Sequence record: LR746311
Length of the DNA: 64,000 nucleotides
Direction: 5' to 3' (one strand)
Source of the DNA: Shigella phage vB_SsoM_113
The notes beneath the pieces were generated by a model, which searched no databases, was not told the origin of the DNA, and saw nothing but the letters and a program-made list of their open reading frames with translations. Shown piece after piece: positions 14,139 through 19,445 of the stretch (within the stretch, counting starts at the first letter, position 1; each line of letters begins with the position of its first letter). The translations under genes were made by a program, and so were the position numbers.

Positions 14139-14162
14139 AGTCTCCTTCGGGAGACTTTTTTC
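14139..14162 (+). terminator. rho-independent terminator
   Basis: AGTCTCC-TTCG-GGAGACT followed by TTTTTT. Confidence 0.75.
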
Positions 14163-14229: not shown

Positions 14230-14418
14230 ATGAAAATTGAAGCACTCAATCAAGAAGGAAATATCTACGTCATCATTAATGGTGATTTTTTCGTCGACAT
14301 GGATGAAGTTACTAGTGAAGAACTTGTAGAACTTCTTAAGAAACGTTATGATATGTGTGATGAAGCTGCAACTCATATGGCGTGTGCAATATTCTCTCTT
14401 TCATATGTGGTGGAATAA
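14230..14418 (+). CDS. small helical protein (62 aa), member of tandem small-ORF array
   Basis: ATG at 14230 with GAGGAG upstream. Confidence 0.55.
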
Positions 14419-14621
14419 TGACTAGAATTGAACAAGCAGATAAAATTAAAGAATTGGTAGCTTTAATTCGCAAAGCAGATGAGGAACTTAGTGACTTTGC
14501 TTGGTTTTCGGCAGGCATTGCAAATAAAGGTATTGAAAAATTTGAAGCTAAAGTTAATAATGCTGTAGAAGCTTTAGATATGTTTCTTGATGAAATTATC
14601 GATCATAATACGAGAGTTTAA
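14418..14621 (+). CDS. small helical protein (67 aa), array member
   Basis: ATG overlapping preceding stop; [17 protein letters not shown]... Confidence 0.55.
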   Translation: MTRIEQADKIKELVALIRKADEELSDFAWFSAGIANKGIEKFEAKVNNAVEALDMFLDEIIDHNTRV

Positions 14622-14623
14622 GT

Positions 14624-14818
14624 ATGCTGACAAGTGAACAGTTTGAAAAAATCATTAAATTAGCACGTGATATTGAAATAGATTCATACCAATTAGCAGT
14701 TGAGCATTGTGAAGGATACTCATACGATGGTATAGAAGCAGCTAAAAAGGATTTGGATAAATCCAAAGCTAAGTTAGTTCAATATCTTGAAATGATTAGG
14801 TGGAATAATGAAAACTGA
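14624..14818 (+). CDS. small helical protein (64 aa), array member
   Basis: ORF track; MLTSEQFEKIIKLARDI... Confidence 0.55.
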   Translation: MLTSEQFEKIIKLARDIEIDSYQLAVEHCEGYSYDGIEAAKKDLDKSKAKLVQYLEMIRWNNEN

Positions 14819-14982
14819 AAAGCAGATGTTTTTAATGAAGCTAATTGAAGAATATGCTAATGCAGTTTCTGACTATGAGTATTCTGCTCGGGAAAGAGGT
14901 ACAGCTTTCGCAAAGGAAGAAATGAAAATCATGGTTGATGCTCACACAAAGCTTCAGAATTTTATTGAAAACGTCATTTAAT
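14809..14982 (+). CDS. small helical protein (57 aa), array member
   Basis: Hand-translated ORF MKTEKQMFLMKLIEEYANAV... Confidence 0.4.
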
Positions 14983-14983
14983 G

Positions 14984-15013
14984 GTTTACAAGTTGGCAAG
15001 GTTATGGTATAGT
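14984..15013 (+). promoter_or_regulatory. T4-type early promoter with imperfect flanking dyad
   Basis: GTTTAC, 18-bp spacer, TGGTATAGT. Confidence 0.65.
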
Positions 15014-15145: not shown

Positions 15146-15331
15146 ATGACAGATGAACAAGCTTTTAAGTTAAGAGAATTAATTGAGACTTATAGTAAAG
15201 CTGTTCGTGCATCAACAATTATTGATGAATCAGCTTTCTCCGGACACGCTAATAAGATTAAATACAAAACTCTTATGGAAGAAGCTAAAGTAAATCTTGA
15301 TTCTTATATTAAAACTTTAATTGGTAAATAA
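15146..15331 (+). CDS. small helical protein (61 aa), array member
   Basis: ORF track; SD AAGGAG upstream; MTDEQAFKLRELIETY... Confidence 0.55.
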   Translation: MTDEQAFKLRELIETYSKAVRASTIIDESAFSGHANKIKYKTLMEEAKVNLDSYIKTLIGK

Positions 15332-15332
15332 T

Positions 15333-15875
15333 ATGAAAGCTATTATTGAAACAACTGATTTGTTCGGTGATCTAGTTATCGAAAAACGTGGTAATGTATA
15401 CGTTCTGACACAGGAAGACGATAGTATTACTATTCTTCCTATGGAACTAGCTGCGATTTTATCTTATACTCCCCCAGGAGTTACCAGTGTAACTAATATC
15501 ACAGGCGACCTCCAAGTTCGTTTTTATCGTGGCACTCACGGTGGTAATATTGAAACTGAACTTGTGTGTCTTTCTATCAATAATTGGGCAACATTCGTTG
15601 TTAAGGTGAAAGAATTCTTGGAATCTGAATCAGCCGAAACATCTGAAAAGGCTAAACTTCAATGGGCTAAAGATCGCAGTGCTAGCATTATTAATCCAGT
15701 AGCTGCAAACTATACTACGACTTTGGATGTCAAAACTTCTTATGAAGATGGTGATGTCGTACTTGTTCGCCAAATTGATGATTCTCGAGCACATATTGTC
15801 ACATTTACCAAAGACGAAGCTATTGCGCTAAAGACTTATCTCGATTCTGTCATTCCAACTATGATTTCAAAGTGA
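15333..15875 (+). CDS. hypothetical protein (180 aa), paralog of next gene
   Basis: ATG at 15333; C-terminus DEAIALKTYLDSVIPTM resembles SEAEAMIKYLTTVTPSM of the next ORF. Confidence 0.6.
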   Translation: MKAIIETTDLFGDLVIEKRGNVYVLTQEDDSITILPMELAAILSYTPPGVTSVTNITGDLQVRFYRGTHGGNIETELVCLSINNWATFVVKVKEFLESESAETSEKAKLQWAKDRSASIINPVAANYTTTLDVKTSYEDGDVVLVRQIDDSRAHIVTFTKDEAIALKTYLDSVIPTMISK

Positions 15876-15881
15876 GGAAAT

Positions 15882-16403
15882 ATGTTTATTTCAAGTGAAA
15901 GCGGTTTAATTCGTGTTGAATTTAAAAATGACATCTTTCTTATTCAAGGAGATGATATTATTAAAATGAGTTATGATGAAATCAAGAAAATTTGTCATGC
16001 TCTTGAAAGTCATGGAAAAGTGAACGCTGTTATTGATATAGGTGATTTATGGGTGACACTTTATGAAGTATCCGAAGGATTTAACATTGAAGATGAAAAC
16101 AACATCTTAGCTATTGACAAAAGAAGTGATTTGTTTGATGTGTTAAAAGTTTATGAACAGTCAAACGGTGGAAGAAAAGCTGCATTGATTTATCAAAAAC
16201 CACATTCATGTGGAACTGCTTCAATCATTTCAGATATTGAAGATGAAACTGATACTTATATGTGTGTTTTAAAAGCTGGTGGTGACCGTCATCCGGATTT
16301 TATTTCTATTCGTCAAAACAATGGAGAAATTTCATTATCAAAATCAGAAGCTGAAGCTATGATTAAGTATTTAACAACTGTTACACCTTCAATGAAAGGA
16401 TGA
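15882..16403 (+). CDS. hypothetical protein (173 aa), paralog of previous gene
   Basis: ORF track; SD GAGGAA upstream. Confidence 0.6.
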   Translation: MFISSESGLIRVEFKNDIFLIQGDDIIKMSYDEIKKICHALESHGKVNAVIDIGDLWVTLYEVSEGFNIEDENNILAIDKRSDLFDVLKVYEQSNGGRKAALIYQKPHSCGTASIISDIEDETDTYMCVLKAGGDRHPDFISIRQNNGEISLSKSEAEAMIKYLTTVTPSMKG

Positions 16404-16873
16404 TTATAATTATGGTTATTAATGAAAACTCTTGGCATTATAAATTATTCAAAATGTTTAACGACGAATGGAAACGACCTAAGACACTTTGTGCATATTT
16501 TTGGTCTATTGTTATCCCTACATTTTTCGTTTCTTTTTTCGGATGTACTATACTCGCAGGTCTAACTATTATCTGTGCAGAAATCATACAGAAATGGCTT
16601 ATTTTTGGTAGTTTATGGACTCTTATTCCATCAGCATTTATACTTGCCATTTTGCTTGTTTTACTTATTATTGGTTCATTTGTTATTCCTGCACAACTAC
16701 ATGAAAAATATAAAGATTATAAATGGAAAAAGGATTATGCTTTACATGTAGAAAATATTGATAGGGCGTATAAAGGTTTACCTCCTATTCAACCCAAGAA
16801 ATCTATTATCGTCGAATTTTTAAAAGCGCGTAAAGCTAAAGTATGTCCTGTTATTGAATATAAGGCTGAATGA
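16400..16873 (+). CDS. membrane protein (157 aa, about three TM helices)
   Basis: ORF track; hydrophobic segments. Confidence 0.6.
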   Translation: MIIIMVINENSWHYKLFKMFNDEWKRPKTLCAYFWSIVIPTFFVSFFGCTILAGLTIICAEIIQKWLIFGSLWTLIPSAFILAILLVLLIIGSFVIPAQLHEKYKDYKWKKDYALHVENIDRAYKGLPPIQPKKSIIVEFLKARKAKVCPVIEYKAE

Positions 16874-17883
16874 TGAAAACAGTAATGAAAAGCTATTTTG
16901 GTAGTCATCTTTATGGAACTTCTACTCCAGAATCTGATGTAGATTTTAAAGAAATCTTTGTTCCTCCTGCTCGCGATATTCTTATCGGAAATGTTAAAGA
17001 GCATATGAGTAAAAACACTAACAACACATCATCTAAAAACACTAAAGATGATATTGACCATGAACTATATAGTCTTAAGTATTTCTTTAAATTAGCTGCA
17101 GATGGTGAAACTGTAGCATTGGATATGCTCCACACTCCACCGGAACTAGTGGTTAAATCTGATTTGCCTGATGTATGGAAGTTTATTCAAGACAATCGTT
17201 CTCGTTTTTATACGACTAACATGAAATCCTATTTAGGATATGTTCGCAAGCAAGCTTCTAAATACGGTGTTAAGGGTTCTCGTTTGGCCGCATTACGTGA
17301 TGTATTGAAAGTAGTTAATCAAATCCCTGAGCAATGGGTTGATTACCAAGAAGACGGTTCCATTAAGCAGCGTCGAACTAAAGTTGAAGATATTAAGCAT
17401 CGTCTTCCAGAGAACGAATTCTGTGAATGGGTATTCCATAATCATGAGAAAACAGGCCCACAAACGTTCTACACCGTGTTGGGTCGTAAATATCAAACAA
17501 TGCTTTCTCTTATCGAGCTTAAGCAATCTTTGAATAAACTTGATGCTGAATACGGCGAACGCGCTCGTAAGGCCGAAGCTAATGAGGGCATTGACTGGAA
17601 AGCTCTGAGTCATGCTTGCCGTGGTGGACTCCAACTATTGGAAATTTACAAAACTGGTGACTTAGTCTATCCACTTCAAGATGCTCCATTTATTCTCGAC
17701 GTGAAGTTGGGTAAACATCCATTTAAAACTGTTCAAGAGTTTTTGGAAGATGTGGTCGATCAAGTAGAAGCAGCATCCATTGAAGCTTCTAAGAACGGTA
17801 TGCAGCAAAAAGTAGACATGGGTTTCTGGGATGACTTCCTTGAGAGGGTTTATCTTGAAAACCACCGAAGTTATTATAAATGA
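16870..17883 (+). CDS. Pol-beta superfamily nucleotidyltransferase-like protein (337 aa)
   Basis: N-terminal YFGSHLYGTSTPESDVDF fits the GS-x10-DxD nucleotidyltransferase signature; about 230-aa helical C-terminal extension. Confidence 0.65.
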   Translation: MMKTVMKSYFGSHLYGTSTPESDVDFKEIFVPPARDILIGNVKEHMSKNTNNTSSKNTKDDIDHELYSLKYFFKLAADGETVALDMLHTPPELVVKSDLPDVWKFIQDNRSRFYTTNMKSYLGYVRKQASKYGVKGSRLAALRDVLKVVNQIPEQWVDYQEDGSIKQRRTKVEDIKHRLPENEFCEWVFHNHEKTGPQTFYTVLGRKYQTMLSLIELKQSLNKLDAEYGERARKAEANEGIDWKALSHACRGGLQLLEIYKTGDLVYPLQDAPFILDVKLGKHPFKTVQEFLEDVVDQVEAASIEASKNGMQQKVDMGFWDDFLERVYLENHRSYYK

Positions 17884-17885
17884 TA

Positions 17886-17909
17886 GGGAGCCTTCGGGCT
17901 CCCTTTTTT
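17886..17909 (+). terminator. rho-independent terminator
   Basis: GGGAGCC-TTCG-GGCTCCC followed by TTTTTT. Confidence 0.8.
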
Positions 17910-17933
17910 ATTTCAAAATTTTTTCACAAAACG

Positions 17934-17963
17934 GTTTACAAGCATAAAGCTTTATGGTACTAT
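17934..17963 (+). promoter_or_regulatory. T4-type early promoter (repeated cassette)
   Basis: TTTTTTCACAAAACGGTTTACA ... TGGTACTATACAACTATCAACT, near-identical to cassettes at 3151 and 45311. Confidence 0.7.
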
Positions 17964-17997
17964 ACAACTATCAACTGATACGGATTTGGGGAATAAA

Positions 17998-18147
17998 ATG
18001 AAAACTACGTTAATTGAAGTAAAAAAGTTGATTGACACAGAAGAAATTTCAGCTTATTTTGAAAATTTCTTAGAAGATGCAACTGAAGATAACGCAGTTT
18101 ATCTCGCTCAGAAAATTATAGAAACATATTTGGAGCAGAATCAATGA
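17998..18147 (+). CDS. hypothetical small acidic protein (49 aa)
   Basis: Hand-translated ORF with SD GGGG upstream and cassette-type leader; below the track cut-off. Confidence 0.4.
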   Translation: MKTTLIEVKKLIDTEEISAYFENFLEDATEDNAVYLAQKIIETYLEQNQ

Positions 18148-18407
18148 CAGTTTACGTAGATGTTTTAATGAATCATGGATGGAAACTTCGCGGTCATCCA
18201 ACTAAAAATTGTCATATGTTCACTGATGGAGATATTGAAGAGCTTCATAAAATGGCAGAAGCAATAGGAATGAAACGTTCTTGGTTTCAAGATAAACGCA
18301 TTAAACATTATGACTTACATGCTCGCCGACGCCAAAAAGCCGTAGAACTTGGAGCTGTAGAAGTATCTCGTCGCGAAGCAGTAAAAATTTGGCAAACATT
18401 AAAATAA
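18144..18407 (+). CDS. DUF4031-like small protein (87 aa)
   Basis: MTVYVD...HYDL pattern recalled for the DUF4031 family; assignment tentative. Confidence 0.5.
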   Translation: MTVYVDVLMNHGWKLRGHPTKNCHMFTDGDIEELHKMAEAIGMKRSWFQDKRIKHYDLHARRRQKAVELGAVEVSRREAVKIWQTLK

Positions 18408-18410
18408 ATT

Positions 18411-18440
18411 GTTTACAGTAGGGTAGTAGTGTGATACTAT
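18411..18440 (+). promoter_or_regulatory. T4-type early promoter with flanking dyad
   Basis: GTTTAC at 18411-18416, -10 TACTAT; inverted repeat TAGGGTAGTAG / CTATTACCCTA. Confidence 0.6.
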
Positions 18441-18476
18441 TACCCTATCAAAACAAATGTGAAATTGGAGAATAAA

Positions 18477-19445
18477 ATGAAAACTGTAACTATCAATAAG
18501 GGTATCTACTTCGGTAAAGAAATCTCTGGAACTTTTGAGCTCTTAGGCGAATGGTTCCCAGATAATGCTCCGGTAGATGCACAAGGAGATGGTAAAGTTT
18601 TTGTTGAAATTGACGGTAAACGTCGCGGTGTTTGGGTTTACAAATCAGATATTTCATATGATGGTGTAAAAGTTGAAGAAGTTAAAGAATCGTATGAAGA
18701 TATGAAAACCCGCATTAATAAAAGATTTAATGTTATGGGAATGATGACGAATGGTATTATTAATGGAAATATTCGTTCATTGATTATCTCTGGTGCAGCA
18801 GGTATTGGTAAAACGTATTCTTTAGATAAAGCTTTGAATAAAGCAAATGATATTGGATACATTGAATATAAAAGCATTAATGGTAAAATCTCTGGTATTG
18901 GTCTTTATGAGCAGCTTTGGAATAATCGTGAAGAGAATTCTGTCCTTTTGATTGATGATGTGGATGTTTTCTCTGATATGGATATTCTTAATCTTCTAAA
19001 AGCCGCTCTGGACACTGGAGAGACCCGTAAAGTCTGCTGGAGCACTGCGTCTTCTTACTTAGAAGAAAAAGGCATTGAGCGTGAGTTTGAATTTAAAGGA
19101 ACGATTGTTTTTATCACAAACGTTGACATTGACCGCGAATTAGACCGTGGTACTAAACTTGCTCCACATTTACAAGCATTAGTGTCCCGCTCGGTTTATT
19201 TAGATTTGGGTGTTCACACTAATGAAGAAATTATGGTCAGGGTTGAAGATGTTATTCTTTCAACTGACATGATGCAAAAGCGCGGTCTTTCTGATGAAGA
19301 AACTTATAAAGCATTATCATGGATGAAAGTTAATGTTAATCGTTTACGCAATGTTTCACTGCGTACTGCTCTTTATCTTGCTGACTTTATTATGACCGAC
19401 AAAAACGGTTGGGAAGAAATCGCTGAGGTTACTCTTCTGAAATAA
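18477..19445 (+). CDS. AAA+/P-loop ATPase (322 aa)
   Basis: Walker A GAAGIGKT, Walker B LLIDDVD, sensor-like FITNVD; ATG at 18477 with GGAG upstream. Confidence 0.7.
   Translation: MKTVTINKGIYFGKEISGTFELLGEWFPDNAPVDAQGDGKVFVEIDGKRRGVWVYKSDISYDGVKVEEVKESYEDMKTRINKRFNVMGMMTNGIINGNIRSLIISGAAGIGKTYSLDKALNKANDIGYIEYKSINGKISGIGLYEQLWNNREENSVLLIDDVDVFSDMDILNLLKAALDTGETRKVCWSTASSYLEEKGIEREFEFKGTIVFITNVDIDRELDRGTKLAPHLQALVSRSVYLDLGVHTNEEIMVRVEDVILSTDMMQKRGLSDEETYKALSWMKVNVNRLRNVSLRTALYLADFIMTDKNGWEEIAEVTLLK

Follow-up and report, generated by a model that had tools for sequence, protein, structure and literature searches.

What does a T4-like phage do with a nucleotidyltransferase (NTase) of the DNA polymerase beta (Pol-beta) type, and do the small genes packed in front of it take part in that function? 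The question is raised by a locus of Shigella phage vB_SsoM_113 (sequence record LR746311), from which a stretch of 64,000 nucleotides, hereafter called the window, was analysed. The window is a genome segment of a Tequatrovirus (T4-like) phage. Direct reading of positions 15333-17883 reveals four closely packed open reading frames (ORFs), all on the + strand, which an original prediction, made from the letters alone, had placed correctly: two paralogous genes, a gene for a membrane protein and a gene for a Pol-beta-type NTase. The last of these ORFs (16873-17883) is the nrdC.11 gene, which has already been annotated as a nucleotidyltransferase and already been assigned to RlaP in the literature. 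We estimate a probability of roughly 0.6 that its product is an RNA 3′-end nucleotidyltransferase, which would refill cleaved tRNAs before the Pnkp and RNA ligase of the phage reseal them.

NrdC.11 as a member of the RlaP family

Both the identity and the fold of NrdC.11 are near certain. The protein is 98% identical to T4 NrdC.11 over 336 amino acids and 99% identical to the T2 protein. This identity over the full length, the conserved gene position and a match to phrog_388 (3.5e-135) place it in the T4 NrdC.11 orthologous group. The T4 protein (NP_049709, listed as a ‘38.9 kDa protein’) has the same length and, here as in T4, the gene is found between mobD.1 and nrdC.10, i.e., downstream of the mobD.1 region and upstream of nrdC.10. 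Relatives of NrdC.11 are present in 1,517 phage records, which include Escherichia, Aeromonas, Vibrio, Acinetobacter and jumbo phages. A search of a library clustered at 50% identity gives 3,412 matching clusters with E<=0.001, of which 818 reach E<=1e-30, and the alignment is almost full-length for nearly all of the 150 matches listed. The gene has been recognised as a member of the COG3541 nucleotidyltransferase/RlaP group since 2006 (PMC1524935).

The original prediction, that the ORF encodes a Pol-beta-type NTase, is borne out by profile searches, which it had itself proposed. The N-terminus matches Pfam RlaP (PF10127) with 43.9 bits (gathering threshold 23, E 3e-11), and beside this match the one to NTP_transf_2 is faint. 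The RlaP profile is also matched by 139 of 140 diverse NrdC.11 relatives, which are 34-54% identical to the query and whose alignment underlies the conservation counts given below. The signature GS-x10-DxD is present exactly as it had been written. Numbered from M16873, it consists of G10-S11, ten residues and D22-V-D24, and it corresponds to the motif of the Pol-beta superfamily, hG[GS] followed by 9-13 residues and [DE]h[DE]h. G10 and S11 occur in all 140 relatives and the two motif aspartates, on whose conservation the prediction had been staked, in 139. The signature is not a chance match, given this near-invariance and the E-value of the RlaP profile.

Besides the signature, further residues are strongly conserved. 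Three acidic residues downstream of it, D60, D62 and D84, are kept in 133, 136 and 135 of the relatives, respectively; Y131, H247, R250 and P267 are each found in every relative, and K243 in 139. Canonical RlaP proteins, such as Pseudomonas PfRlaP and PaRlaP, which are encoded in rtcB-rlaP-rtcA operons, share with NrdC.11 an NTase domain at the N-terminus and a mainly helical C-terminal region. When compared by hhalign to twelve canonical RlaPs of ~255-275 amino acids, the N-terminal core of the NrdC.11 type aligns with 95% probability (E 3e-8), and the GS, the DxD and the later acidic positions are in register. D60 and D62, at the start of strand 61-67 in the predicted structure, fall on the LD..GWD segment that is invariant in canonical RlaP, and D84 falls on its invariant E110. 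One of the two residues D60 and D62 is probably the third metal ligand.

Predicted structure of NrdC.11

The original prediction had also called for a structure prediction, and the AlphaFold2 (AF2) model is confident, with a mean predicted local distance difference test (pLDDT) score of 94.8 and a predicted template modelling (pTM) score of 0.85. It comprises an NTase core that spans about residues 1-115, a pair of long helices, a beta-sheet insert (~154-208) and a bundle of helices at the C-terminus. The ‘long helical extension’ noticed behind the signature is mainly helical, but the beta-sheet insert shows that it is not purely so. The core is a mixed alpha/beta Pol-beta core that bears a carboxylate on a later strand (D60/D62), and the meaningful matches of the fold search are all Pol-beta NTases (HalB, 3c18 and kanamycin NTase), with HalB on top. 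Sequence searches of the PDB, with the protein as well as with a profile of 140 sequences, returned no relative.

Compared to canonical RlaP, NrdC.11 is about 80 residues longer and contains the beta-sheet insert. Judged by their length, canonical RlaPs of ~250 amino acids would be too short for such an insert. The top-scoring local alignment of the C-terminal regions, which is not significant, places K243-x3-H247-x2-R250 on the canonical K-x3-Y-x2-R helix. As a lead and not a result, the sequence comparison suggests that the NrdC.11 type may be an RlaP with an insertion of ~90 residues.

A probable role in RNA repair

What is known of RlaP concerns the repair of RNA. According to PMC7824862, which quotes Burroughs and Aravind (2016), RlaP owes its name to an association with RNA ligase genes, and it is predicted, phages included, to restore nucleotides lost from cleaved RNA before ligation. 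A preprint of December 2025 describes two Pseudomonas RlaPs, PfRlaP and PaRlaP, which add one or two nucleoside monophosphates (NMPs) to RNA 3′-OH ends, are inactive on DNA and protein acceptors, and prefer Mn2+ (PMC12776372). These enzymes prefer the break-site end of a nicked-tRNA mimic, and RlaP partly restores the aminoacylation of a tRNA without one anticodon-loop nucleotide (PMC12776372). In the sequence-similarity network of that study T4 NrdC.11 is named as an RlaP member and falls in cluster 5, separate from the others, whereas the canonical Pseudomonas RlaPs are in cluster 1a (PMC12776372).

Both types occur side by side in bacteria. Gene neighbourhoods were surveyed in one genome per prokaryotic species, using the best 80 of 156 stretches, which encode NrdC.11-type relatives 32-53% identical to the phage protein. 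A full-length canonical RlaP is encoded directly downstream of the NrdC.11-type gene in 10 of the 61 loci with enough downstream sequence, among them L087, L107, L089, L090, L103, L052 and L071. These ten proteins match the whole Pfam profile with 175-212 bits, and the stop codon of the first gene often overlaps with the start codon of the second. In the tandem loci, the NrdC.11-type proteins are about 310-350 amino acids long and their canonical partners ~255-275. Pnkp, which combines kinase, phosphatase and ligase, is encoded in five loci, one of which is L087 (3338-8274), with the gene order Pnkp, NrdC.11 type, canonical RlaP and Macro domain; another locus encodes a protein with a kinase, a phosphoesterase and a T4-type RNA ligase. 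Other immediate neighbours are RtcA (2 loci) and Hen1 (1 locus). These neighbourhoods tie the NrdC.11 type itself, and not the Pfam family alone, to the repair of RNA breaks. They suggest that two non-redundant RlaP classes cooperate in RNA repair in bacteria, and they support an RNA-repair role for the NrdC.11 type. The original prediction had held that the function cannot be told from sequence, which now appears too pessimistic, as RlaP membership and the bacterial neighbourhoods favour RNA 3′-end repair over a role in signalling or as a toxin.

The mechanism that we propose would work as follows. The metal site, formed by the G-S...DxD signature and the third aspartate, would transfer one or two NMPs from nucleoside triphosphates (NTPs) to the 3′-OH of damaged RNA. 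The main substrate would be the tRNA halves that host anticodon nucleases produce. Where ‘trimming’ nucleases such as RloC have removed nucleotides, NrdC.11 would put these back, after which the phage's own Pnkp and RNA ligase would reseal the tRNA. The gene would be expressed as the last one of an early transcription unit, with the terminator at 17885 as its end. The present analysis itself provides the orthology, the family membership by sequence, the conserved catalytic residues, the fold and the RNA-repair neighbours of bacterial relatives, and the activity of the canonical RlaP enzymes is taken from the literature. We infer that the NrdC.11 type has this same activity and that it would serve tRNA repair during infection. 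Deletion of the nrdC.11-mobD.3 block is tolerated by T4 (PMC9825161), as is expected for an accessory gene with a counter-defence function.

A number of points weigh against a role of NrdC.11 in tRNA break repair. None of the solved structures is close enough to infer its substrate, and the match to the RlaP profile covers positions 23-142 of 249 only. Over the C-terminal ~200 residues, the alignment to the 12 canonical RlaPs is not significant (hhalign E 0.2-0.3), and in PfRlaP their counterpart forms the RNA-binding cleft. Because of this unaligned region and the extra beta insert, the choice of substrate could differ. The proteins that have been assayed are Pseudomonas RlaPs of cluster 1a only, with no NrdC.11-type enzyme among them (PMC12776372). 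Bacteria that pair the NrdC.11 type with canonical RlaP presumably do not hold the two as redundant copies. When all neighbours in the 80 bacterial loci are clustered, no universal partner emerges, and about 80% of the bacterial relatives have no RNA-repair neighbour. Lastly, neither an RNA ligase nor Pnkp is encoded within the 64-kb window; in T4-type genomes, the genes for both are located elsewhere.

Alternative roles of the nucleotidyltransferase

NrdC.11 might act on the 3′ terminus of tRNAs rather than on breaks in the anticodon loop, rebuilding eroded or missing 3′-terminal (CCA) nucleotides of phage or host tRNAs in repair or maturation. The chemistry would be identical to that of RlaP, i.e., addition to an RNA 3′-OH, the phage has a tRNA cluster of its own (6 genes at 588-1089), and when total E. 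coli RNA was offered to canonical RlaP, RNAs of the size of full-length tRNA became labelled (PMC12776372). The same canonical enzyme, however, shows little NTP specificity and labels the 5′ half of a nicked-tRNA mimic, which carries the 3′ end of the break site, far more than the 3′ half (PMC12776372). Moreover, the bacterial neighbours are ligase and kinase-phosphatase enzymes of break repair, and NrdC.11 does not group with CCA-adding enzymes or poly(A) polymerases, as it has no PolyA_pol-type Pfam match at E<=0.1 and no NCBIfam match. We therefore consider CCA repair unlikely. Nucleotidylylation of a protein or a small molecule, e.g., AMPylation of a host target or a KNTase/MNT-like modification as a means of host takeover, would fit with the kanamycin, lincosamide and streptomycin nucleotidyltransferases and the MNT antitoxin among the fold neighbours, and with a C-terminal region as diverged as this one, other acceptors are conceivable. 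With proteins rejected as acceptors by the Pseudomonas enzymes, as described above, this role is judged to be quite improbable.

Two further ideas involve HalB. Since it is the top structural match and Hailong is an operon of a membrane protein and an NTase (PMC13434031), NrdC.11 could be imagined as a synthase of an oligonucleotide or nucleotide signal that works with the adjacent membrane protein, either as a Hailong-like pair or as a phage decoy that supplies or inhibits a defence of this kind. HalB (PDB 9dbh) synthesises oligodeoxyadenylate and is paired with the membrane channel HalA. With ~217 amino acids it lacks the long C-terminal region of NrdC.11, to which it is 13% identical without a detectable sequence relationship, and HalA is unrelated by sequence to the phage membrane protein. 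Membership of Hailong was rejected, as neither protein shows a sequence relationship, no defence profile is matched and the pairing is not obligate. NrdC.11 does not fall among the CD-NTases or other defence NTases either, with no PADLOC match at E<=0.01 and no CD-NTase or cGAS among the fold matches listed; NCBIfam and PADLOC profile searches gave zero matches for any of the locus genes. A signalling role is thus given hardly any credence. Addition of nucleotides to DNA ends in phage DNA metabolism, in the manner of a terminal transferase, seems just as far-fetched. NrdC.11 is a Pol-beta superfamily member, its surroundings are rich in genes of nucleotide metabolism (tk, nrdC), and HalB, the nearest structure, makes DNA (PMC13434031), but canonical RlaP is inactive with DNA as the acceptor, even though dATP is accepted for addition to RNA (PMC12776372), and the genes adjoining the bacterial relatives encode RNA-repair enzymes. 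A bolder speculation, which we hold to be very improbable, is that the membrane protein and the NTase, with their overlapping genes, form a Hailong-like pair in which the enzyme, rather than repairing tRNA, would make or tail an oligonucleotide that controls the membrane protein or serves as a decoy for a host defence. In a milder version, the NrdC.11 type would make up a second RlaP class with a function of its own, in which the beta insert serves as a new module for RNA recognition; in bacteria it would act in succession with canonical RlaP, and in T4-like phages by itself.

The membrane protein and its link to NrdC.11

The gene directly upstream of nrdC.11 encodes a small membrane protein that has no Pfam family above threshold and belongs to phrog_944. 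A deep search for relatives found these in T4-like phages only, and none of them has a domain annotation. The protein contains two hydrophobic blocks of ~35 residues each, and both of its termini are basic and conserved. The original prediction of a membrane protein with three transmembrane (TM) segments was therefore right as to the membrane and probably wrong as to the number, since an even count of 2 or 4 better fits termini of this kind. In the family alignment, the N-terminus reads M.IN.NSWH.KL...P.SLC.YFWK and the C-terminus FIKARK.K.CP.IEF, while the hydrophobic middle varies freely; W8, H9, C27, Y29, K143 and C145 are invariant. The conserved cysteines and histidine on termini that look cytoplasmic may point to a small module for binding a metal or a partner.

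In most enterobacterial T4-like phages, the membrane gene is found upstream of the NTase gene, sometimes with an ORF in between (HNH-like in locus L009). Conserved adjacency among related phages is, however, expected from common descent, and a functional partnership is thus not supported by it. The membrane protein evolves much faster, with 25-35% identity where the NTase keeps 64-82%, and its gene is present in 932 phage records compared to 1,517 for the NTase. In T4, in locus L005 and in the Aeromonas, Vibrio and jumbo phages, the NTase is retained although the membrane gene is missing. Among the bacterial NTase relatives, a membrane neighbour upstream was found in 1 of 26, which is not above background. 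The original prediction had implied a module of the NTase with the membrane protein and the two paralogs. Such a module is not supported, as T4 and other phages retain the NTase without the others. The membrane protein is a fast-evolving accessory gene product of T4-like phages and, together with the two paralogs described below, it is encoded by syntenic accessory genes that are not demonstrated partners of the NTase.

In Agrobacterium phage Atu_ph07, a jumbo phage, four small multi-TM ORFs, arranged in tandem and overlapping, are found upstream of the NTase homolog (30% identity). This locus (L034:2438-4023) was considered as a recurrence of the pairing with a membrane protein and was discarded, as there is no profile similarity to the T4-type membrane protein.

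The MobD.1 paralogs

The first two of the four genes are indeed paralogs, as had been noticed, but their similarity is not limited to the C-termini; it extends over the whole length (29% identity, E 3e-9). Both proteins match the two T4_y05I domains of Pfam (PF24449 and PF24448), which are named after T4 MobD.1, above the thresholds of 24.9 and 27, with 108.3 and 62.4 bits for paralog A and 116.5 and 82.9 bits for paralog B. T4 has a single MobD.1 copy, and paralog B is without a T4 counterpart. Directly upstream of nrdC.11, T4 instead has mobD, a gene for an HNH homing endonuclease, where the phage studied here has the second MobD.1 paralog and the membrane protein.

The structure of paralog B was modelled with moderate confidence from a shallow alignment (pLDDT 75.6, about 88 for the N-domain and about 60 for the C-domain). 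The model contains three beta4-alpha repeats, and the predicted fold of the MobD.1 paralogs is PUR/Whirly-like. Sequence identity to PUR-alpha, Whirly and MRP1-MRP2, which have this single-stranded nucleic acid-binding fold, amounts to 10-15% only, and the pLDDT of the C-terminal repeat of the paralogs is ~60.

Paralog A is 46-48% identical to the T4 and ACG-C40 copies (46% to T4 MobD.1) and 68-70% identical to the alleles of loci L012 and L013, whereas the genes flanking it are 90-99% identical to those of phage ACG-C40. This mosaic points to the exchange of alleles between T4-like lineages.

Gene boundaries and transcription signals

The coordinates of the locus are listed in Table 1. Neighbouring genes are tightly joined. 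Paralog B ends in a stop codon (16401-16403) that overlaps with ATG 16400 of the membrane ORF, for which ATG 16412 is taken as the real start because it restores the conserved N-terminus of the family, M-I-I-N-x-N-S-W-H. The membrane ORF in turn ends in a TGA (16871-16873) with which the two possible start codons of the NTase gene overlap. For the latter, the original prediction had the right ORF with a start at 16870, but ATG 16873 is the likelier one, as it has AAGG at a distance of 7 nt upstream and yields the 336 amino acids annotated in T4 and ACG-C40.

The promoter-like site upstream of the locus is probably the start of a transcription unit that ends after the NTase gene. Based on the strong hairpin behind this gene and the promoter-like sites on either side, all of them consensus matches alone, the four genes look like the distal part of a single early transcription unit.

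Table 1. Features in and around the nrdC.11 locus (positions refer to the window).
Feature	Position	Strand	Evidence and remarks
Terminator-like hairpin, the previous one upstream	14139-14156		
T4 early-promoter-like site, TTTACA-17-TATAGT with TG upstream	14985-15013	+	Consensus scan only
61-aa ORF, phrog_4859	15146-15331	+	92% identity to phage ACG-C40 gene labelled ‘helicase loader’
MobD.1 (y05I) paralog A, 180 aa	15333-15875	+	Pfam T4_y05I_N 3.3e-31, T4_y05I_C 5.1e-17; phrog_1502; tblastn
MobD.1 (y05I) paralog B, 173 aa	15882-16403	+	
Small membrane protein, 153 aa (157 aa from ATG 16400)	16412-16873	+	phrog_944 ‘membrane protein’ 1.9e-49
NrdC.11 ortholog, RlaP-family Pol-beta-fold nucleotidyltransferase, 336 aa	16873-17883	+	Alternative start ATG 16870 (337 aa)
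Catalytic motif G10-S11-x10-D22-x-D24	16900-16944	+	Read from sequence; hhalign onto canonical RlaP G37/S38...D49xD51
Conserved acidic residues D60, D62, D84	17050-17124	+	Conservation among 140 relatives
Beta-sheet insert, about residues 154-208	17332-17496	+	DSSP of AF2 model
Intrinsic terminator, AGGGAGCC-TTCG-GGCTCCCT followed by a T run	17885-17910	+	Strong hairpin, UUCG loop, directly 3′ of NTase gene
Early-promoter-like sites past the terminator	17935-17963 and 18412-18440		

Genome context

At the DNA level, the region shares 96% identity with Escherichia phage AV119. Matches were found in 725 phage records, almost all of them from T4-like enterobacterial phages. The surrounding gene order, with tk, rI.1, rI, rI.-1, the mobD.x genes, nrdC.11, nrdC.10, nrdC.9 and nrdC.8, is that of T4 on the opposite strand. 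In comparison to T4, two extra small genes without a T4 counterpart are present between nrdC.11 and nrdC.10, at 17986-18407. One is a 49-53-aa ORF (49 aa in this phage; phrog_6888), the other encodes a DUF4031 protein of 87 aa (Pfam 1.6e-21), and both lie downstream of the early-promoter-like site at 17935-17963. Phage ACG-C40 has an additional gene for a ModB-like ADP-ribosyltransferase inserted between nrdC.11 and nrdC.10, and this further insertion marks the intergenic slot as a hotspot for accessory genes. NrdC.10 itself (18459-19445) is a P-loop AAA/STAND-like ATPase, for which the Pfam matches to AAA_14, AAA_22 and nSTAND3 are weak and below threshold; its conservation across T4-like genera is 70-79%.

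Upstream of the locus, the small ORFs at 14415-14621, 14624-14818, 14808-14981 and 15146-15331 are of the MobD.2-MobD.5 type. They share 20-25% identity and a weak pattern, T.EQ..K..EL..Y..AV ... L..[FY][IL], and may be a tandem array of diverged paralogs. The label ‘helicase loader’ that some records give to the last of them is apparently an automatic annotation. The six-tRNA cluster mentioned above comprises Ser-TGA, Thr-TGT, Met/Ile-CAT, Tyr-GTA, Asn-GTT and Arg-TCT; T4 is not known to carry Tyr and Asn tRNAs.

Implications for tRNA repair in T4-like phages

As a gene, nrdC.11 of this phage adds nothing new, being an ORF of a textbook phage that has been annotated and classified before. If NrdC.11 restores the nucleotides that are excised by wobble-excising anticodon nucleases, e.g., RloC, this would complete the classic story of tRNA repair by Pnkp and Rnl1 of T4. 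Two side observations would be useful to work in this direction, namely the tandem of NrdC.11-type and canonical RlaP in bacterial Pnkp operons and the predicted PUR/Whirly-like fold of MobD.1.

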